Shown: piece by piece, positions 2,940-63,222 of the stretch | How positions within the stretch are numbered: position 1 is the stretch's first letter | Layout: the number at the start of each line of letters is the position of its first letter | NCBI GenBank assembly: GCA_013426185.1 | Contig: CP058602.1 | Coordinates: 206,873-270,872, forward strand | DNA: 64,000 nucleotides | Source: Candidatus Woesebacteria bacterium | Lineage (GTDB): Bacteria > Patescibacteriota > Microgenomatia > UBA8517 | Direction of reading: 5' to 3' | Notes under the pieces: generated by a model | Told to the model about the DNA's origin: nothing | The model's input: only the letters and a program-made list of their open reading frames with translations | Databases searched by the model: none | Position numbers and translations under genes: made by a program

Positions 2940-4173
2940 TTAAATCATCTCCTTTCTCTTTTAAGAATACACCAGCTGCAAAACTTGACGCAGCAATTAT
3001 TAAGAGCAAAAACCTTACTCCCAGAAACTCAGTAAAAGCGCCGGAAAAAATTACAGGGAATATGCTGGCTGCTGTTACCAAAAACCAGAAATTACCAAAG
3101 ATGCGCCCTCGCAAACCCCCCGGCACAACTTCCTGCAAAAAGGTTTGCGCTGAGACTATTATCCCACTGAAAGATAAACCTAAAACCACAAGTAAAAGAG
3201 AGGAAACAACAACTTTCCAAAACCCGGCTACCCAAACAAATAAAAAAGAAAAAAGAAGAAAAGAAAGTCCCATCAAGACAAAAGATATCTCAACCACTTT
3301 CTTCTTTCTGACCTTTTTCTTCTTGAATAAAGAAGGAATCAAAAAAGCTCCAAGTGCAGCTCCAACTCCGGCAGGAACTATTATCATAACACCAGCCTTA
3401 TCGTAATGAACTGACAAAATCTCGCTTGCCACCAAGGGAATATTAACCACAATAATAGCAAGTCCTATTTGCATCACCAAAAGCAATAAAAATGGGAAAA
3501 GAACCTTATTATTAGCCTTGATGAAATCGTATCCTTCCTTAATCCTTACAAAGAAGTCAAAAATCAATTTATCAAAACTCCCGCCCTTCATCTTACCCAC
3601 TCTCATTTTGGGTAAGTAAGAAACACTCACAAAAGCAATAAAGAGGAACAAAGAGCATAAAATCAAAGAATTTCTAAAACCAAAGAATTGATTCAAGACA
3701 CCAGCAAATCCAAAACCAACAATTAATGAAAACTGCTGAGTCAAAAAGAAAAGCCCGTTGGCAAAAGGCAAACCACTTTTATTAACCAAAGACGGCAAAG
3801 ATGCAGCTTCGGAAGGAACGTAAAACTGATTCAAAAATGAATAAGCCAAAGCCACACCATAGAGCAAAAAAACTCTAAAATTAAATGTAAATGCATAAAC
3901 CAAAATAACTAAAAATTGTAAGAAATTAGTAATCATCAAAAGCCTTTTCCTATCTGCCATATCAACATAAGCTGAGGCAAAAGGACCAATCAAAATAGCA
4001 GGCAAAGAGTAAGCTACCCAAAGAAAAGAAGTAGCTATACTTGAATTGGTAAGAGAAAAAAGGCGAGTCAAAAGCAAAAAATTCATCACATTGATAGCCA
4101 GTTGAGACAAAATTTGCGAAGTCCACAAATAAACAAAATTCCTGTTACTAACTAAAAACTTATACTCTTTCAT
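2929..4173 (-). CDS. MFS-type transporter (12 predicted TM helices)
   Basis: 414-aa, highly hydrophobic polytopic protein with MFS-like topology. Its start overlaps the gatA stop (ATGA) and its end overlaps the gatB start. Confidence 0.6.
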
Positions 4174-5931: not shown

Positions 5932-6855
5932 TTAAATCATCTTTTCCAGGGCTTTAATTCTCTCCTCAATCGGCGGATGGGTATTAAAAAGCCCAGAGAA
6001 CCAATCTACTGCACCACGAGCTTTTTCTTTGAAAGGATTGACAATAAAAAGGTGGGCAGTTGCTTTGTTGGCAACTTCCAAAGGTTCGCTATCTTTTGAA
6101 ATTTTATAAAGAGCAGAAATTAAACCCGAAGGTTGCCTTGTAATAGCAACAGCTGAAGCATCAGCTAAAAACTCACGCCTTCTTGAAATAGCTAGCCTGA
6201 TAAGCTGAGCAATCAAAGGAGAAATAATAGCAAACAAGATACCAAGTATCACGAATAAAGCGCCAGCGCTATTTCTCTCATCCCTATTACCTCGGTAAAA
6301 AGCTCCTCTCAAAAACATATCAGCCAAAAGGGAAACCGAGCCTACAAGCACCGAAACAACAGACATCAAAAGAATGTCGTAGTTTTTAATATGAGAAAGC
6401 TCATGGGCAACAACTCCTTCAAGTTCGGTTCTATCAAGTTTTTCCAAAAGGCCACGAGTAGCACAAACTACGGCTTTTTCAGGACTCCTGCCTGTCGCAA
6501 AAGCGTTAGTAGCACTATCCTCAATAACATAAAGAGCGGGTTTTGGCAAACCAGCCGCTAAACTCAAATTTTCAGCAACGGTATAAAAAAGAAAATCCCT
6601 TTTTCTATCTGCCGGACGGGCCCCAGAAATAGTTAAGATAATACGATCAGAAAAATAATAACCCAAAAAGGTGGTTAGACCAGAAATAATAAGAGCAATA
6701 CCAGAAACCCCAAGCCACGAAACCTCATATCCTAAGTAGTAAACCATAGCTGAAGCAATAAAATAAGTTGCGAAAGCCACAAAAACAACAAAAAAAGAAA
6801 CAACCAAGAAACTCTTTCTCTTGTTATTTGATGTCACCTCGTAGATATTCTCCAT
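5932..6855 (-). CDS. htpX: Zn-dependent membrane protease HtpX (M48)
   Basis: 307 aa with N-terminal TM helices, an HELSHIKNYD zincin motif and M48 topology. Confidence 0.85.
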   Translation of the reverse strand: MENIYEVTSNNKRKSFLVVSFFVVFVAFATYFIASAMVYYLGYEVSWLGVSGIALIISGLTTFLGYYFSDRIILTISGARPADRKRDFLFYTVAENLSLAAGLPKPALYVIEDSATNAFATGRSPEKAVVCATRGLLEKLDRTELEGVVAHELSHIKNYDILLMSVVSVLVGSVSLLADMFLRGAFYRGNRDERNSAGALFVILGILFAIISPLIAQLIRLAISRRREFLADASAVAITRQPSGLISALYKISKDSEPLEVANKATAHLFIVNPFKEKARGAVDWFSGLFNTHPPIEERIKALEKMI

Positions 6856-7550: not shown

Positions 7551-9377
7551 TCAAGAAGATAATTGCTTTTCAAATTCAGAAAGGCTAAGGCAGTTGATAA
7601 CATCAGCTTTAGTTGCCCAGCCACGTCTTGCAACCGATATTCCCCACTTCATATTGTCCAGGTTGTCCTTATGATGCGAATCAGTACCTAAAGTAAATTT
7701 AACACCAACACCCAAAGCCTCCTTAACCAAAAAATCAGGCAAATCAAGACGCATCGGATCGGCATTAATTTCCAACCACTTTTTATTTTTCACACAAAAT
7801 TCAAAAATTTTCATCCAATCAGCATCAACTCCTTCTCTCTCTCCTATCTTTCTTGCAGTAGGATGAGCTAGAATCTTAGCCTTGGGATGAGACAGTGCCA
7901 AGATTAATCTTTTAGTCACTTCTTCTTTTGATTGTCTAAAACTAGAATGAATAGAGACCAAAGCAAAATCAAGCAATTCCAAAGCCTCATCAGGAATAGA
8001 AAGTTTTCCATCAGGTAAGATATCTATTTCAAGGCTATTGAACACTTTTTTTACTCCAATATTTTTAGCTTTTTCCTCTGAACAATTAAATTGTTCTTTC
8101 TTGATTGTTGTTAATTTTTGATTTAATTCGGCGACCTTTTCTCTTTTTCTCTTCAAAATATCTAAAATTTGGAATTTAGAATGTCTGCTTTTTGAAGGGT
8201 TGTGCTCTGTAAAAGCAATATATTCATAATTCAAGCTTGATGCTTTCTTAACAATATCCTCCATTGACGACTCTCCCAGATCATGGCTTGTCTCAATATC
8301 AAAGTCTGAATGAATCTGTAAATCCGCCTTAACATCATCAAGAGTAATTAAATTAGGAAGCTTATGATTCTCAGCTGCTTCAATCTCACCTGTATCTTCA
8401 CGCAATTCCGGAGGAATAAAATCAAGTCCCAAAAAATTATAAAACGATTTTTCGTCTGCAAACTTCTTGAGAGTATTCTCACTTTTTATTTTTATTCCAT
8501 ACTCAGAAAGACTAAGCCCCTTCTTCAAGGCATATTCCCTCAAAGCTATATTGTGGTGTTTGGAACCTGTGAAATGCTGCAAAAGCGAACCGTAAGAATC
8601 AGGGTCAACTACCATCAAATCCACTTGAATATCAGAAGGCAGAAGAATTGAAGCTTTCTTTTCCCCCTTTTCTATAACCCGAACAATTTTAGGATAGGCA
8701 ACAAAATGCTCAATGACACGTGATTGATTTCTTGAAGCTACAGCTATATCTATGTCACCAATGGTTGAAACCTGCCTTCTCAAGCTTCCTAATGCGTCCA
8801 CACGAAGCGCGTATTTACTCTCCTTGATCCAGTTAATTACATTTTCTGCGATTTGGCTTGCATAAGGCAAGAGCATCCTTTTATCTCTGCCTTTAAACTC
8901 AGAAATTGCTTTAAGGATATCCTTTTGAGATTCTTCTCCAAAACCTTCAAGCAAAGCAATCTTTCCTTCCAAGGCCTTCTTTTCAAGATCAGAAATAGGA
9001 TCTTTTGACGAAGAAAGATCTAAATCCTGAACCAGTTTCAAGGCAGTTTTTGGTCCCACCCTTGGCAATTCCATAAGAACAAAAACAGCCTCAGGAATCC
9101 CCTTTGTGACTTCCTCAAAATGACGCGATCTCCCTGTCTTGAAAATTTCAGCCAAATGAGAAGCTATTGAAGAACCAACGCCAGGGATTTGATCTAATTT
9201 TCCTTCATCATAAAGGTCTTTTGCTTCGCTTGAAAGGTGTTCAATTGCACTAGCTGCACGATCATAAGCAATGATCTTAAATTTATTTTTATCAGGATCC
9301 TTTATTTGATAAGAAGCCGATATTGCTCTTAAGAGATTTGCAATTTGCAAATTATTCAAATTCTTATCAATTTTCAT
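7551..9377 (-). CDS. DNA polymerase X family protein with C-terminal PHP phosphoesterase domain
   Basis: A helix-hairpin-helix polymerase-beta-like N-terminal half (LDQIPGVGSSIASHLAEIF) is followed by a PHP domain (IHSDFDIETSHD ... HPTARKIGEREG). The likely start is the internal ATG at 9375-9377 (MKIDKNL) rather than the ORF-track start at 9425. Confidence 0.75.
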   Translation of the reverse strand: MKIDKNLNNLQIANLLRAISASYQIKDPDKNKFKIIAYDRAASAIEHLSSEAKDLYDEGKLDQIPGVGSSIASHLAEIFKTGRSRHFEEVTKGIPEAVFVLMELPRVGPKTALKLVQDLDLSSSKDPISDLEKKALEGKIALLEGFGEESQKDILKAISEFKGRDKRMLLPYASQIAENVINWIKESKYALRVDALGSLRRQVSTIGDIDIAVASRNQSRVIEHFVAYPKIVRVIEKGEKKASILLPSDIQVDLMVVDPDSYGSLLQHFTGSKHHNIALREYALKKGLSLSEYGIKIKSENTLKKFADEKSFYNFLGLDFIPPELREDTGEIEAAENHKLPNLITLDDVKADLQIHSDFDIETSHDLGESSMEDIVKKASSLNYEYIAFTEHNPSKSRHSKFQILDILKRKREKVAELNQKLTTIKKEQFNCSEEKAKNIGVKKVFNSLEIDILPDGKLSIPDEALELLDFALVSIHSSFRQSKEEVTKRLILALSHPKAKILAHPTARKIGEREGVDADWMKIFEFCVKNKKWLEINADPMRLDLPDFLVKEALGVGVKFTLGTDSHHKDNLDNMKWGISVARRGWATKADVINCLSLSEFEKQLSS

Positions 9378-9462
9378 TATTAATAAAATTATAGCAAAAC
9401 AATTTGCACTAAATATAAAAGCCACAGCTTAAAGCTATGGCTTTTAAAGACGTGGGGGGAAA

Positions 9463-9858
9463 CTATTCGCTAGTCCTCCCGTCAAATTCAGGCGCATCGG
9501 CTTCTGCTTCTTCTTTTGTAGCACGAACTACATCAAATCTGTGATGTGCCGGCGCATAAATTGTATAAAACTTAAGAGGCTCGTTCCCTGTATTAATCAC
9601 GTTGTGTCTAGCCCCAGCAGGAACTACTACAGCATCGCCATCTTTTACTTGATATTCATTTCCGTCAATTATCACCCTGCCTTCGCCTTCCTCAAAGCGG
9701 AAAAACTGATCATTTTCTTCGTGAATTTCTTCGCCTATTTCCTCTGATGGCTTTAAAGACATCAAAACCAGCTGGAGATGCTTGCCTGTATAAAGAACGC
9801 GACGATAATCGCTATTAGTCTCGGTAGCATTTTCTATATCGGTATGATAACCCTTCAT
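9463..9858 (-). CDS. Cupin-domain protein
   Basis: Cupin_2-like core GKHLQLVLMSLKPSEEIGEEIH. Start assigned to M14 (ATG 9856-9858) because a strong SD, AAGGGGGTGA, lies 7 nt upstream. Confidence 0.6.
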   Translation of the reverse strand: MKGYHTDIENATETNSDYRRVLYTGKHLQLVLMSLKPSEEIGEEIHEENDQFFRFEEGEGRVIIDGNEYQVKDGDAVVVPAGARHNVINTGNEPLKFYTIYAPAHHRFDVVRATKEEAEADAPEFDGRTSE

Positions 9859-9980
9859 ATTCTCACCCCCTTTCAAATTAAATATAACACAAGACAACTT
9901 AAGCGCAATAGCAAGCGATCACAATCTCTCGTAGAATAATTTATCCGTATACACGAATGCAAGTTGGATAAAAAATTGCG

Positions 9981-21070: not shown

Positions 21071-23017
21071 ATGAGAATAAACAAAAATTTAATTTCAATC
21101 ATTTTATCACTCTCACTCATAAATTACCTACTTTTACCCCGCTTAATAGCAAGACAGGCTGACGCACAAAACAGTGTACTTCTTTCTGACAATTTTGATG
21201 ATGGCGATTCTGATGGTTGGGAAGAACATACTTTCAATGGAGATTGGTTTGTAAATAACGGTGAGTACTGGGGAACAGCATCTCCGAGCGGAACGATAAG
21301 CAAAAATTCTTACACTGTTAGAGGAGATACTTCTTGGAAAAACTATAGCTACTCTGTAAAAGTAAGAAGTGAGGAAAAAGATGACGCTGACAAAATTATA
21401 TTCTTCTATTTCAATAAAGACCGAGCCGCATACGAGGTAAATCTCAGAAGCCAATACGACTCATCACATGGTAATGACATCGTACTATTTAAATCCCCCA
21501 ACTTAGACTCTACAGCAGGCAGTATTCTAAGTCAAAAAAACATAGACAATTACCCAAAAACAGACTATACAATAAAAGTAGAGGCAAGAAACATTGGGGA
21601 AGATGTACAGATAAAAATATATGTAGACTCCAAACTTCTTATCGAATATACAGACAAAAAGACAGAAAACAACACCCCAATATACAATGGAGCAGTAGGT
21701 TTGTTGGTCTGGACACAAACACCCCACACAACAGCTTTCGATGATGTTTTGGTGAAAAGCCTAGACACACCACCAACCCCACACGTTGAAAAAGTCATTC
21801 TTGCTCCTGGGATGGGGGCAAGTTGGAACACAGAGGCGATCCTCAATTGCAAGCTTAATGGATATCAAGGTAATTGGACAATGGCGCCTTTTGCTGAAGA
21901 CATTTATAACCCTCTGATCTCATCGCTTCAAGATAATGGTTTTCAAGTCATTCCTTTTTATTACGACTAGAGAAAACAAATTCAATCACACAGCACAAAC
22001 ATATCAAACTTAATAACAAACCTAAACCTTGGTGAGAATGAAAAAGTTGATTTTGTTGGTCACAGTATGGGTGGTCTTGTCGGCAGAGCCTATCTTGAAA
22101 GTGGCAGCGATAAAATCTACAAATACATTTCAGCAGGATCACCTCATCAGGGGACTGCTCTTGCCTACCCTGCGTGGTACGGAGGCGAGATATGGAATAA
22201 CAGTTTGGTAACCAAAATCGCAGCCACACTTCTGATTAAGCGCTGCGGAATCAATCACAAAAACGATATGGAAACACTAAGAGAAATCGCCCCTTCTTTT
22301 CGAGATCTACTTCCAATTTATCCATTCCTCATAGATAAAAAAACAGGAATTCTCAAAGGTATAGACACAAATCAATGGCTTGGGAAAAGCGTGTTTCCGC
22401 CAACTGGGACAGCTACAATCATAGCTACTCTTTCGGGAAATGGTTTTGATACCCTAGAAAACATTATAACAAAAGAACCTTCTAAAAAGGAAAAGAAACT
22501 CGGTCTTTGGGAAGAAGGCAAGCCAGCAGGAAAAGAAACAACAACTAAGGGAGACGGAACTGTGCTTTCAAAAAGCGCCAAAATAGAAAATAAAAAGGTT
22601 ACAAACTTTGAAATTAATCAAAACCATGGAGGTCTAGTGACATCACAGGAAGGAATAAATACCATCATAAATTTTCTTAAGGGAGAAAAATCAGCTCTAT
22701 CAGCAACGTCTTTAATCACTGGTGAAGAACCAAAATCCGCACTGGTAATGATAGCCTACCCGTCTACTTTTGTCTCAATTGATCCTCAAGGGAAAATCAA
22801 AAGAGACAAACACAATGTGGTAACTCAAATTAATCCCAAATCAGGAAAATACAAAGTTGGCTTTCTTCCTCTTGCTGATGAATCAACTCTCCTTATCGGG
22901 CAATTCCTTAAAAATGGCGACTATTCCTGGAAAGAATACAAAATAAAAGGAAGATTACCTTTTGCCAAGACTATAAAATTTGACGAGAATACTCTCACTG
23001 AAAATCCCCTGCAATAA
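21071..23017 (+). pseudogene. Secreted LamG/DUF1080-like domain + class-2 lipase-like alpha/beta hydrolase, interrupted by one in-frame TAG at 21968-21970
   Basis: ORF 21035-21970 and ORF 22067-23017 share one frame with no other stop between them. Read through, the sequence is ...VIPFYYD*RKQIQSHSTNISNLITNLNLGENEKVDFVGHSMGGLVGRAY, a complete lipase nucleophile elbow (GHSMGG) preceded by its normal upstream segment. A signal peptide, MRINKNLISIILSLSLINYLLLPRLIARQADA, follows the ATG at 21071. Confidence 0.6.
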
Positions 23018-23050
23018 TTAAGGTCTATTTTACTACATCTAATCATAAAG

Positions 23051-23070
23051 CCACGCGCTTTAGCGTGTGG
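23051..23070. other. Hairpin CCACGCGC-TTTA-GCGTGTGG (one G-U position)
   Basis: Seen directly in the sequence. It is the first of two tandem hairpins that share AAAGCCACG...TTTAG...GTGGAT flanks. Confidence 0.5.
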
Positions 23071-23101
23071 ATGTAGAATAGTTTAGATGGAGCCAAGAAA
23101 G

Positions 23102-23128
23102 CCACGGCCTTTAGGCCGTGGATTTTTT
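23102..23128 (+). terminator. Rho-independent terminator: CCACGGCC-TTTA-GGCCGTGG followed by ATTTTTT
   Basis: Perfect 8-bp GC-rich stem with a 4-nt loop and a 6-T run, 85 nt downstream of the lipase-gene stop. It is paralogous to the hairpin at 23051. Confidence 0.6.
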
Positions 23129-23159
23129 ACTTCACAATTACAAAAAAATATTTTTATTT

Positions 23160-23185
23160 GTATCCGTGTACTAGTACACGGATAC
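23160..23185. promoter_or_regulatory. 26-bp perfect palindrome GTATCCGTGTACTAGTACACGGATAC (operator-like or bidirectional terminator)
   Basis: Perfect dyad symmetry around CTAG, flanked by A/T runs, in the convergent intergenic zone between the lipase gene and the 23360-24034 gene. Confidence 0.45.
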
Positions 23186-23359
23186 AACACACAAATAGAT
23201 ATCTGTCAAATATCAAGAATAAAGAATCTCTTACAAAAAATAGATCAGCGTATATCAGGCTTGCCACCAAAAATTAAAAAAGAAGCCGATACATAGGACA
23301 CAAGAATAAAAATTATATATTCCGAAATTAAACTTTCTTGAACTTGAAAAAACAAACAA

Positions 23360-61129: not shown

Positions 61130-61744
61130 TCAGGAGAGATATCTGTAAGTAGATTCTTCTAAAGTCTTTCTAACCTCATTCCAGTCAACATCAACCAAAA
61201 ATTCAGGATCGGGTTGTTTTTCTGCTTCTTCAAAATAAACAAGAGATTTTAAAATATGAGACATTTGATAATTTACTCCCTTAAACTTCTTCTCAAAAAG
61301 AGCTAAAAGCTCACCAAGACCGAACTTCTGCAAAATAAAATAAAGATCAATAAAATCTTTTTTGCTTCCTCTTGAGGATATTGCTGAAAGCTTCATACAA
61401 GCAATATCTTCAAGGGAGGCAACCTTAACTTGATCAAATTCAAGAAAATCACCAACCAAAGGATACTTATATTCTAAAAAGCTAACCTTAACATCATCGA
61501 TATATAAATCAAGTGTTCCTTTATCTTGATTAATAACCTTAGGATTAAGGGTTTTAAGTTTGGCCATTAGAATTTCAAACTTAGGAAAAGAAGAGGAAAA
61601 AAAATCAAGATCAATCGATTTTCTGTGCCCCAAAATCAAAGATAAAGCAGTGCCACCTGCAAGATAGAAGTTGTCTAAGACTTGAGTTTCTCTTATTTTT
61701 CTTAAAACCTGTCTTGTCTTTGAATCAATGGCTTTCTCAAACAT
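61130..61744 (-). CDS. Nucleotidyltransferase of the AbiEii/DUF1814 toxin family
   Basis: VLDNFYLAGGTALSLILGHRKSIDLDFF, the characteristic N-terminal NTase motif of AbiEii-type type IV TA toxins. Confidence 0.6.
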   Translation of the reverse strand: MFEKAIDSKTRQVLRKIRETQVLDNFYLAGGTALSLILGHRKSIDLDFFSSSFPKFEILMAKLKTLNPKVINQDKGTLDLYIDDVKVSFLEYKYPLVGDFLEFDQVKVASLEDIACMKLSAISSRGSKKDFIDLYFILQKFGLGELLALFEKKFKGVNYQMSHILKSLVYFEEAEKQPDPEFLVDVDWNEVRKTLEESTYRYLS

Positions 61745-61995
61745 AAAACCTCCTTTCTTGGAACCTTTAAAATTAAAGCATAAAAATTGGCACTTTTAAA
61801 TGACAAGTTACGAGAATTCTTCAAAACATTTTTAATATCTTCAAGAGAATAAAGTTTTTTTAAATCTTCAAAATCACAAACATCACCAAATTCAAGAACC
61901 CTCTCTATGATAAATTCTTTGTTTTTATCCTTTTCTAAAGTGGAAAAATCTATATCCCAGAAAAGTTTCTTGAAATACAAAGGAAGACTACTCAT
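61702..61995 (-). CDS. Small protein upstream of and overlapping the AbiEii-like gene (possible cognate partner/antitoxin)
   Basis: 97 aa, MSSLPLYFKKLFWDIDFSTLEKDKNKEFIIERVLEFGD..., with a 43-nt overlap with the downstream NTase gene. The function is inferred from position only. Confidence 0.3.
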   Translation of the reverse strand: MSSLPLYFKKLFWDIDFSTLEKDKNKEFIIERVLEFGDVCDFEDLKKLYSLEDIKNVLKNSRNLSFKSANFYALILKVPRKEVLCLRKPLIQRQDRF

Positions 61996-62023
61996 TGATG
62001 CTTAATTATACCATTCTCAACTG

Positions 62024-62520
62024 AAAACTTAAAAGTCAAAAGTCAAAAATTAGATTACAGATTACAGAATACAGATTAGAGAATATAGAACAAAATTACA
62101 AATTCCAAATTACCCGCCTGCAAAAGCTATCGCTTTAGCGATTGCGGGCAGGCAAATTACAAATTCCAATATACAAACAAATTACAAGAACCAAATTACA
62201 AACCCATTAAGGAATATGGATTTAGGATTTAGGATTTAGGATTTAGGATTTAGGATTTAGGATTTATGAATTTTTGCTTTCTACTTACTACTTTCTACTT
62301 GCATTCCCTGCGTAATACATAATACAAGATACTAGATACAATCTTTCGGCCGGATTCGACTAGCTTTGACTAAATTCCGATAGCCGATAGCTGATGACTA
62401 ATGTCCGACATCCGACAGCCAATGTCTTATGTCTGATATCCGATAGCTGATGTCCGAAGTCTGATGTCCGACATCCGAGATCCGACCTCTTTTACCTTTT
62501 AACTTTTACCTTTTACCTAC
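62024..62520. repeat. About 500-bp noncoding tract made entirely of consecutive blocks of 7-bp tandem repeats with an embedded GC-rich hairpin
   Basis: Blocks read directly from the sequence: AAAAGTC x2-3; AGATTAC x5 (degenerating); AAATTAC/AAATTCC x3; a hairpin at 62116-62153; AAATTAC-like x about 6; GGATTTA x6.5 (62213-62268); CTACTTN x3; NATACAA-like x4; CCGATAG x2; about 12 units of NNTCCGA/NNTCTGA (62374-62485); CTTTTAC x4 (62486-62520). Confidence 0.85.
62116..62153. other. Imperfect 38-nt hairpin GCCTGC-AAAA-GC-T-ATCGC[TTTA]GCGAT-T-GC-GG-GCAGGC inside the heptamer tract
   Basis: The only GC-rich, non-heptameric segment of the tract. Its apex CGCTTTAGCG is identical to the apex of the 23051 hairpin. 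Confidence 0.5.
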
Positions 62521-62547
62521 CAAACAAAAATTTGTTAAAATCAAGGA

Positions 62548-63222
62548 ATGAGTAAAAGAAAAATATTTATCGTCATTCCAGCTTATAACGAAGCGAAGGT
62601 TATTCATAAAGTTATTTCTGATATCAGAAAAGAGGGATTCAAAAATATAGTTGTGGTTGATGATGGATCAAATGATGATACAAAAAAGGTAGCTTCAAAA
62701 GCAAAGGCTAAAGTTTTAAGTCATTTTATCAACCGAGGAAAAGGAGCGGCTGTTAAAACAGGCCTTGAATACGCAAAATTAGAAAAGGCCGATATCGTGG
62801 TAACTATAGATGGCGACGGTCAGCATAACCCTAAAGATATTAAAAGAATGATCAAAAAAATAGATGAAGGATACGATATCGTTCTTGGTTCACGCTTTCT
62901 TAACAAAAAAAATAAAATGCCTCTTTTCAATAGATTAGCAAACCACCTTGCCAACATCATTGTCTTCCTAACTTACAGTCTCTGGGTTTCAGATTCCCAA
63001 TCAGGATTCAGAGCCTACACAAGAAAAGCTTTAGAAAAAATAGACACAAGGCTTGATAGATATGAATTTGATAGTGAAGTAATAAGAGAAATAGCAAAAC
63101 ATAAAATCAAGTTCTGCGAGACACCAATAGATGTTTTTTACACCCAATACTCAATTTCAAAAACCCAAAAGCAAAGCCTAAAAAATGGAATAAAAACACT
63201 AATAAAAATTCTTATCTCATAG
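62548..63222 (+). CDS. GT2 polyprenyl-phosphate sugar synthase (DPM1/GtrB/ArnC-like)
   Basis: KIFIVIPAYNEAKVIHKVISDI...IVVVDDGSNDDT...TIDGDGQHNP...GSRF, the hallmark motifs of Dol-P/Und-P-hexose synthases. Confidence 0.75.
   Translation: MSKRKIFIVIPAYNEAKVIHKVISDIRKEGFKNIVVVDDGSNDDTKKVASKAKAKVLSHFINRGKGAAVKTGLEYAKLEKADIVVTIDGDGQHNPKDIKRMIKKIDEGYDIVLGSRFLNKKNKMPLFNRLANHLANIIVFLTYSLWVSDSQSGFRAYTRKALEKIDTRLDRYEFDSEVIREIAKHKIKFCETPIDVFYTQYSISKTQKQSLKNGIKTLIKILIS

Follow-up and report, generated by a model that had tools for sequence, protein, structure and literature searches.

A short hairpin with constant termini in intergenic DNA of Patescibacteria, probably a miniature insertion element

What is the GC-rich hairpin that breaks into a tract of heptamer repeats near the end of a 64,000-nt stretch of the genome of a Candidatus Woesebacteria bacterium (contig CP058602.1, positions 206,873 to 270,872 of the forward strand; hereafter the window)? 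A first-pass annotation of the window had grouped this hairpin, at 62 kb, with two others at 23 kb (H1 and H2) into one dispersed family of REP (repetitive extragenic palindromic)-like or terminator-like palindromes, defined by a common C-TTTA-G apex. The three stem-loops with a TTTA apex are all present at the places where they had been seen; the locus therefore raises the question of whether they belong together and, if not, of what the 62-kb hairpin is. We describe the latter as one copy of a separate family, here called E40, which is probably a non-coding, non-autonomous miniature insertion hairpin acting at the DNA level, similar to REPs and to the small dispersed repeats (SDRs) of cyanobacteria. 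Positions given without a locus name are those of the window, and other contigs are cited by locus number (L001 and so on).

Comparison with about 100 other copies confirms the hairpin but shifts its limits from the 38 nt initially proposed (62116-62153) to 40 nt at 62113-62152 on the forward strand (CCCGCCTGCAAAAGCTATCGCTTTAGCGATTGCGGGCAGG), as delimited by metagenome copies and a covariance model. The element is laid out as CCCGCCTGC-AAAAGCTATCGCTTTAGCGATT-GCGGGCAGG. Its 5' terminus CCCGCCTGC (62113-62121, +), in which positions 5-9 are paired to the final 5 nt of E40, and its 3' terminus GCGGGCAGG (62144-62152, +) are the same in all sub-families and read CCTGCCCGC/GCAGGCGGG on the opposite strand. 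Between them stands the inner hairpin ATCGC-TTTA-GCGAT (62129-62142, +), the part noticed in the first pass, whose stem and loop both vary by sub-family. A T.T mismatch beside the inner hairpin (62128/62143, alignment columns 16/31) is kept in at least 90% of rows, and conservation extends to the unpaired A10, T16/T31 and G34-G35. In the window, whose G+C content is about 36%, perfect hairpins rich in GC are uncommon; E40 forms the most stable 44-nt local fold of the whole stretch, at -21.5 kcal/mol against a mean of -5.6 and a standard deviation of 2.9 in a sliding fold. In a scan of the window with filters off, 62113-62152 obtains 69 bits (E 1.7e-11) from the covariance model, R1, and its reverse strand 29 bits. 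A coding role was rejected, 40 nt not being divisible by 3 and only 5 of 90 copies lying inside open reading frames (ORFs) of at least 100 aa.

The central 18-mer of E40 matched more than 120 metagenome contigs. Among the 122 matches listed, 96 carry the full 40-mer with at most 5 mismatches (68 of them exactly), two are cut by the contig end, and 24 lie elsewhere, mostly in coding sequence with a few indel variants. By their flanks, the copies among these matches fall into 90 distinct contexts, unrelated to one another, in hosts that include Woesebacteria (the window), Shapirobacteria and Berkelbacteria; the 22 outer bases, left free in the search, are nearly invariant. When 185,579 species-representative genomes were scanned, an exact 39-mer was met at just six sites: in two Shapirobacteria, in two contigs belonging to a single Berkelbacteria metagenome-assembled genome (MAG), in one MAG labelled "Patescibacteria group", and in a 3.5-kb contig binned as Gammaproteobacteria, whose flanks match groundwater contigs resembling those of the candidate phyla radiation (CPR). 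The proteins encoded in the window are identical to those of a Candidatus Woesebacteria MAG.

A search of the fetched loci with the termini only yielded sub-families in which CCCGCCTGC...GCGGGCAGG is constant and the cores differ: AACGCTT-GATGC-GTA-GCATC-T, ATCAGCT-ATGCT-GAA-AGCAT-T, ATCGCT-ATGC-GAA-GCAT-T and AACGCT-ATGC-GTA-GCAT-T, together with two single examples, AAAAGCT-GATGC-TTTA-GCATC-T (L111) and AAAAGCT-ATGC-TTTA-GCAT-T (L133). The inner stems are thus ATCGC/GCGAT, GATGC/GCATC, ATGCT/AGCAT or ATGC/GCAT, with loops TTTA, GTA, GAA or TGAAA. All members, of 36-41 nt, follow one plan: the constant 5' end, an A-rich linker, GC, the T.T mismatch, an inner stem of 4-5 bp closing a loop of 3-5 nt, then GC, GG and the constant 3' end. 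As the loops vary across sub-families, the TTTA apex is not what defines the family, which is marked by its invariant termini. Against Rfam 15, only tRNAs pass the gathering threshold in the window, and at E<=10 nothing relevant appears around E40 or H1/H2, nor around relatives.

Co-variation was counted on an alignment of 30 distinct family sequences. Under the fold ....(((((....((.(((((....))))).))..))))), 93% of the cells are paired, five pairs (16 cells) are changed on both sides, and none of 500 shuffles reaches the observed score; a model-fitted alignment that includes viral relatives leaves this result unchanged. Four of the five pairs of the inner hairpin are changed on both sides across sub-families, and pair 7-38 passes from U-A to A-U and C-G. 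An alternative terminal helix, 1-5 with 32-36, fits equally well and also co-varies, and the data do not separate the registers 5-9/36-40 and 1-5/32-36. The minimum-energy register of ViennaRNA, GCCTGCAA/TTGCGGGC, was rejected: no pair in it is changed on both sides and 495 of 500 shuffles do as well. Rare terminal variants, CCCGCCAGC...GCGGGCTGG (L060) and CCAGCCCGC...GCTGGCGGG (L109), add co-variation at 7-38 and 3-34. The termini are complementary in the same order, CCCG-CCTG ... CGGG-CAGG, which is unusual. These patterns show that the E40 hairpin is selected as a structure.

How the element came to its sites is best seen outside the heptamer tracts, where many copies adjoin tRNA genes. 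After in-silico removal of E40, the joined flanks of 19 contexts can be aligned to genuine tRNAs with no gap at the join (92-100% identity over 13-34 nt), and in 18 of them the junction is at tRNA positions 8-21; E40 is in the sense of the tRNA in 10 and antisense in 9. Since excision restores a continuous tRNA sequence in these 19 contexts, insertion was precise, and at eight loci (L013, L052, L063, L126, L047, L056, L085 and L104) it is a clean 40-nt insertion with no base duplicated or lost. The interrupted tRNA sequences are all 5' fragments (positions 1 to about 27-34) that lie upstream of an intact copy of the same tRNA. An interruption of functional tRNA genes was rejected, as excision with 36 boundary variants never gave a full tRNA in ARAGORN. 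An intron of the archaeal bulge-helix-bulge type was also set aside, with no formal test, because E40 is self-contained, occurs outside tRNAs and, where it meets them, is found only in fragments; the group I introns at position 35/36 of Patescibacteria tRNAs (PMC13011429) are a separate matter. In L013 (1-250) and L023 (980-1092), an intact tRNA-Thr is preceded by a tandem array of at least three units, in each of which tRNA-Thr positions 1-34, their D-loop occupied by an E-family hairpin, are joined to a linker of 14 nt.

Most E40 contexts show no target duplication. Of the 63 contexts outside heptamers, 7 (11%) have flanking direct repeats of 9-14 nt, whereas random positions have them in 1.1% of cases (p about 7e-6), and the heptamer contexts, like those with the 9-mer TAAAGTTCA in Berkelbacteria, also tie E40 to short tandem duplications of variable length. 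Such variable lengths are less readily explained by a staggered cut of fixed size than by slippage or template switching. Left flanks end in TA (26), TC (21), CA (13), GG (8) and others, with no fixed tetranucleotide, and a preference for insertion into hairpin loops was not found relative to random positions (p=0.13-0.57). Insertion of E40 is thus precise, in either orientation and mostly without target duplication. One Berkelbacteria locus of 8 kb, L133, contains three copies of the E family, of which two have TAAAGTTCA 9-mers at their sides, and a DUF3800-IX RNA (Rfam RF02968, 72 bits; 7632-7700, -) about 80 nt from an E40 variant.

The family is not confined to AT-rich DNA. The central 20-mer of the 62-kb hairpin had no match among viral contigs. 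When IMG/VR was searched for a pattern of the termini alone, CCCGCCTGC-N16-24-GCGGGCAGG, it returned 77 loci, many of them chance matches in GC-rich DNA, among which 31 copies in 20 loci (L157, L168, L181, L212, L214 and 15 others) are clear 36-nt relatives of the form CCCGCCTGC-NNCGC-N13-GCGGGCAGG. Many of these score 35-47 bits with R1, and one has the very sequence of the L013 sub-family. They stand between genes in structural regions of phages, several with flanking direct repeats and one inside GAACTGA heptamers. The predicted viral contigs that carry them have 48-64% G+C. The E40 family thus extends well beyond Patescibacteria. In L157, two inverted repeats of about 150 nt with the hairpin flank a 3.7-kb block of structural genes.

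Mobility at the DNA level is the reading that we favour because insertion is precise, both orientations occur, the contexts are unrelated, and copies are present in dead tRNA fragments. The substrate would be the folded element itself (terminal 5-bp helix, internal loop, GC clamp, T.T mismatch and inner hairpin), and a nuclease or transposase supplied in trans would cut exactly at the constant termini and paste or copy E40 elsewhere. Small GIY-YIG nucleases are the sole candidate with a positional association, which is suggestive: a GIY-YIG ORF (Pfam PF01541, E 2.4e-15) starts 12-50 nt from E40 at 11 loci of the 90 contexts, and apart from it no gene family is consistently found beside the element. 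At nine loci or more, an ORF of about 81 aa fills the gap between the tRNA fragment and the intact tRNA gene, ending 1-10 nt before the latter; as these loci were picked for carrying E40, whether the cassettes need it is not inferable from them. The cassette consists of a 5' fragment of tRNA-Asn, -Gln or -Leu, the ORF of about 81 aa and the intact same tRNA (L056, L061, L062, L066, L085, L104, L109, L111 and L114), and in L085 the start codon of the ORF lies within tRNA-derived sequence.

Several observations weigh against a mobile element. No transposase or nuclease is tied to E40: the window contains no GIY-YIG gene, and the viral contigs have neither a GIY-YIG nor a Y1 gene near the relatives. 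In L058, a gene resembling REP-associated tyrosine transposases (RAYT-like Y1_Tnp, PF01797, E 1.9e-12) lies 1 kb from E40, but no E40 was found within 10 kb of RAYT-like genes in other genomes (L140-L147), and these genes are preceded by a dispersed palindrome of their own, TTGACAAGG-N5-CCTTGTCAA; RAYT was rejected as the mobiliser on these two grounds. Decayed copies of E40 are rare, which fits purifying selection on a functional motif no less than recent mobility, and the metagenome sample was chosen by an exact central 18-mer, so that the centre seems more conserved than it is. Copies per genome appear to be few, with one in 72 kb here and the six places of the exact 39-mer; other contigs hold 2-4 family members per locus of 8-14 kb. 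One larger repeat accounts, through its own copies, for about 40% of the contexts, which are hence not independent insertions. Finally, the bias of E40 orientation relative to local GC skew is weak (35:18, p=0.03, the contexts not being independent).

The RAYT-like genes deserve a remark of their own. The L058 protein is 98% identical to one of a Woesebacteria genome, homologues are common in Microgenomates, and the genes lie in conserved housekeeping neighbourhoods. One or two copies of TTGACAAGG-N5-CCTTGTCAA, with a loop that varies by lineage, stand before the gene, and the gene flanks carry TTGACAAGGACGGACCTTGTCAA; sites of the gene or palindrome are L058 1231-1320 and 1314-2018, L140 9889-10702, L142-L147 9963-10726 and L001 19005-19027. 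The palindrome and the RAYT-like gene form a candidate REP-RAYT pair in Microgenomates.

The serious rival to a mobile element is a conserved functional motif. E40 would then be a cis-element (a protein site, an RNA processing or stability hairpin, or a hotspot of cassette shuffling), of which each copy is selected for its function rather than being selfish. The extreme conservation across distant hosts with few decayed copies, and the constancy of the unpaired bases, are what such a motif would produce. Its position would agree with this too, since copies sit between genes of variable surface-polysaccharide and pilin clusters and, in phage contigs, immediately before ribosome-binding sites; that phage-like contigs with a very different G+C content carry relatives points the same way. 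However, with 85 of the 90 contexts intergenic, the neighbouring genes show no preferred arrangement (18 ++, 15 --, 12 divergent, 7 convergent), and E40 occurs in both orientations relative to genes and to tRNA sense, where a transcribed motif would keep one. Many copies lie within dead 5' tRNA fragments, and no neighbouring gene family is constant except GIY-YIG at 11 of 90 contexts. Nor does a T-run follow the hairpin on either side, a terminator scan of 61900-62620 being empty; terminator function was rejected for E40 on the absence of a T-run and its random orientation to genes, and the terminator-like character proposed in the first pass thus fails for this hairpin. On this evidence, we regard a selected cis-element as unlikely, though it has to be kept in mind.

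A second alternative arises from the setting of the window copy. At about 62.1 kb, E40 splits a heptamer array of AAATTAC type precisely at the boundary of two CAAATTA units, within a heptamer-tract mosaic (HTR, 62020-62520, +) delimited by Tandem Repeats Finder (TRF) arrays and homology. Its units are AAAAGTC, AGATTAC, AAATTAC, GGATTTA, CTTTCTA, CCGATAG/ATGTCCG and CTTTTAC, in an order that is conserved. Between 20 and 30 other Patescibacteria loci, as many as three of them on one contig, match the whole stretch 62020-62520 with 70-85% identity, so that a module of a mosaic repeat of about 500 nt is the best description of the window copy. Could the mosaic be the real repeat unit, and E40 a mere module with no behaviour of its own? 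Heptamer tracts make up about 40% of the E40 contexts (the window copy included); in them E40 always points one way relative to the heptamers and always marks the precise boundary of two units, AAATTA|E40|CAAATT or, in another lineage, units of GAAATTA, and in these regions sub-family A is followed, some 100-170 nt downstream, by sub-families B and C. On the other hand, about 50 contexts are free of any heptamers, including the precise insertions into tRNA fragments and the contigs of 48-64% G+C, and at least one HTR lacks E40. The idea that E40 has no independent behaviour is accordingly improbable, and more so than a selected cis-element.

The HTR without E40 lies 7.5 kb past the window end (L001 17010-17450). 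It holds another hairpin, ending GGGCAGG|CAAATTCC; this hairpin, CCCTGAACyAGAATAAATTCGrTTCAGGG-CAGG, is found at L001 17140-17172, L058 at about 3226-3258 and L116 at about 6685-6717, and has the 3' GGGCAGG and the next CAAATTCC in common with E40. In L006 the heptamers differ although the adjoining protein is identical. Directly upstream of the HTR of the window is a DUF6922-AbiEii (toxin-antitoxin-like) gene pair (61130-61995, -), at the edge of a long glycosyltransferase/Wzy cluster. Just past the window end, small genes for four-helix-bundle proteins of 23S_rRNA_IVP or bAvd-like type stand among the glycosyltransferase genes (L001 15693-16067 and 20608-20675; L002 7140-7514 and 8480-8872).

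There remains the proposal that E40, H1 and H2 form one REP- or terminator-like family recognised by its apex. H1 (CCACGCGC-TTTA-GCGTGTGG, 23051-23070, +) and H2 (CCACGGCC-TTTA-GGCCGTGG, 23102-23121, then ATTTTTT, to 23128, +) do resemble each other as had been noted: they have common flanks AAAG...AT, and what distinguishes them is that two pairs are swapped (CG/GC to GC/CG) and a G.T pair in one is G-C in the other. This pairing-preserving difference was borne out elsewhere, as the twin design recurs with compensatory changes in L054, L021 and L018, the last diverged. All three TTTA loops of the window are closed by C-G, the 10-mer CGCTTTAGCG occurs twice against 0.02 expected (a count of 2 reached in 0 of 100 shuffles), and the H1/H2 module of L018 lies at the D-loop breakpoint of a tRNA fragment, as many E40 copies do. 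However, the E40 model R1 does not see H1 or H2 at E<=10 even with filters off, and the E40 family is set by its termini, with variable loops. The broader apex pattern CYTTTAGR is not enriched, with 13 occurrences in the window against 22.6 expected, and about 1 Mb of related DNA, which yielded 106 distinct GC-rich tetraloop hairpins, contains none of this TTTA kind except those of H1/H2 modules. A single family defined by the apex was ruled out on the covariance search, the loop variability and the non-enrichment of CYTTTAGR, and we consider it very improbable; the common 10-mer is most simply a coincidence of two GC-rich stems, each closing a TTTA loop.

H1 and H2 are instead two stems of one module, unrelated to E40, the second of which ends the upstream gene in a terminator-like manner. 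The twin-hairpin module, M103 (23033-23130, +), has an outer helix CTACATCTAA/TTAGATGGAG that encloses H1, followed by H2 and its T-run. The dispersed palindromes first proposed are thus found for the 62-kb hairpin and not for H1 and H2, which are helices of this module of about 100 nt; the terminator-like character, in turn, holds for H2, which in a terminator scan has 8 pairs (7 of them G-C) and a T-run downstream of the gene at 22067-23017 (+), and whose stem extends with AAGAAA/TTTTTT to 14 bp. H1 has no T-run. Over the 104 nt at 23029-23132 there is 98% identity with L054, in which the stretch stands behind a different gene and H1 is perfectly paired (GCGCGTGG), the G.T pair being G-C; in both the window and L054, M103 follows a gene on the same strand. 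Diverged copies stand in L018, right after a tRNA-Ser 5' fragment (...GGTTTA|CTACATC), and in L021, with stems CCACGGAC-TTTA-GTCCGTGG and CCATGGGC-TTTA-GCCCGTGG. The four copies align as one module of about 100 nt, with a consensus fold that contains 5 compensatory pairs.

M103 is strain-variable: in L137 (700-860), from another sample and with a 100% identical flanking protein, 21 different bases replace about 260 nt of 23040-23300, which comprise H1, H2, the palindrome at 23158-23187 and a further 140 nt or so. The scaffold of L136 is interrupted by a gap at H1/H2, and L139 ends there. The palindrome, a perfect TTGTATCCGTGTA-CTAG-TACACGGATACAA (13+4+13, 23158-23187, no strand assigned), is a third, separate dispersed module, the 24-nt core of which recurs in heptamer regions of L042, L045, L046, L048, L070 and L096, preceded there by GCCGCTGGCCCTCTAAAGGG. 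A terminator-like hairpin, AAAAGCCATAGC-TTTAA-GCTGTGGCTTTT, at 9420-9447 (-), behind the gene at 9463-9897 (-), resembles H1 and H2 in its GCCA..GC / GC..TGGC stem and its T/A loop.

That the 62-kb hairpin is a technical artefact (adapter, chimera or assembly error) is hardly credible, for although all short-read assemblies of the locus break inside the heptamer tract, it is present in the assemblies of numerous projects that used separate pipelines (JGI, ENA Hainich groundwater, NCBI MAGs, IMG/VR), with natural point variants, sub-families and compensatory changes.

A mobile hairpin of this size would matter for several reasons. Patescibacteria have very small, streamlined genomes, which are thought to be poor in repetitive and selfish DNA; the letter-identical E40 of Woesebacteria, Shapirobacteria and Berkelbacteria, with its phage-like relatives, points to shared active machinery or to gene flow, and we know of no description of such machinery. 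Searches of the literature by topic and by sequence words found no description of E40 or of heptamer mosaics in Patescibacteria; as E40 and its mosaics break short-read assemblies, they probably fragment MAGs and are under-reported. To our knowledge, the link between small hairpins and heptamer tracts has so far been seen mainly in cyanobacteria, and Patescibacteria would offer a second, unrelated and experimentally simpler setting for it. The precise insertions beside GIY-YIG cassettes at tRNA genes also provide a concrete enzyme-substrate hypothesis. A bolder proposal, which we hold to be doubtful, is that the CCCGCCTGC...GCGGGCAGG hairpins are an unrecognised class of minimal mobile DNA, of 36-41 nt, common to Patescibacteria and to unrelated, far GC-richer bacteria or the phages of these. 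Their same-order complementary termini (CCCG-CCTG ... CGGG-CAGG, with co-variation at 3-34 and 7-38) might then reflect a new cut-and-paste chemistry, possibly carried out by the tRNA-side GIY-YIG nucleases, and the hairpins might promote the duplications that build the heptamers.

Among known systems, several share single traits with E40. Miniature inverted-repeat transposable elements are unlike it, as its termini match as inverted repeats at only 7 of 9 positions and there is no fixed-length target duplication. Elements of IS200/IS605 type insert 3' of a fixed target of 4-5 nt and in an orientation tied to the lagging strand; at E40 the left flanks have no fixed tetranucleotide, the orientation relative to GC skew (35:18) hints weakly at a strand-specific process, and the missing duplication is compatible with such elements. 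Intrinsic terminators are represented in the window by H2 (G+C-rich 8-bp stem, T-run, gene upstream), whereas E40 and H1 have no T-run. Fungal and algal mitochondria harbour mobile G+C clusters, GC-rich palindromes in AT-rich spacers that are presumed selfish; E40 is likewise a GC-rich palindrome scattered in AT-rich spacers, but the clusters are organellar, have other sequences and, in some classes, defined target duplications. The TAACTGA intergenic heptamer direct repeats of Beggiatoaceae, Cyanobacteria and Bacteroidetes (PMC4679880) resemble the HTR in being tandem heptamers, upstream of start codons and with a patchy phylogeny; they differ in their units, and no associated hairpin is described for them.

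The REP elements come closer. Hallmarks of REP-RAYT systems are a 5' GT[AG]G tetranucleotide, a RAYT gene flanked by its REPs, and tens to hundreds of copies per genome. Like the REPs and REPINs with their RAYT transposases, and the bacterial interspersed mosaic elements (BIMEs) of E. coli and Pseudomonas (PMC3116915), E40 is a short, GC-rich, imperfect palindrome, intergenic, dispersed, set in a mosaic with other motifs and endowed with a conserved stem mismatch. In size, intergenic position and repetition (40 nt, 85 of 90 contexts, about 100 sightings) it matches a REP, and a RAYT-like gene exists in its lineage. It differs in that its termini have no 5' GT[AG]G, the RAYT-like genes of the lineage are flanked by TTGACAAGG-N5-CCTTGTCAA and not by E40, the copy number per genome appears low, and the termini are identical across Patescibacteria classes and in far more GC-rich viral contigs. 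On the first two of these points, formal membership of E40 in the REP-RAYT class fails.

E40 appears to resemble even more closely the SDR4-6 small dispersed repeats of Nostoc, reportedly described by Elhai and colleagues in 2008 as embedded in heptameric tracts of short tandemly repeated repetitive sequences (STRRs). Both are non-coding, shorter than 50 nt, capable of forming a hairpin, well conserved, found at unrelated intergenic sites and typically embedded in tandem heptamers. The two differ in host phylum, in sequence and in length (36-41 nt for E40 against 21-27 nt for the SDRs), and the constant termini around a variable core and the insertion into the D-arm of tRNA fragments are features of E40 that are not known from SDRs. 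With that reservation, the Nostoc SDRs would be its nearest counterparts, ahead of the REPs and BIMEs.

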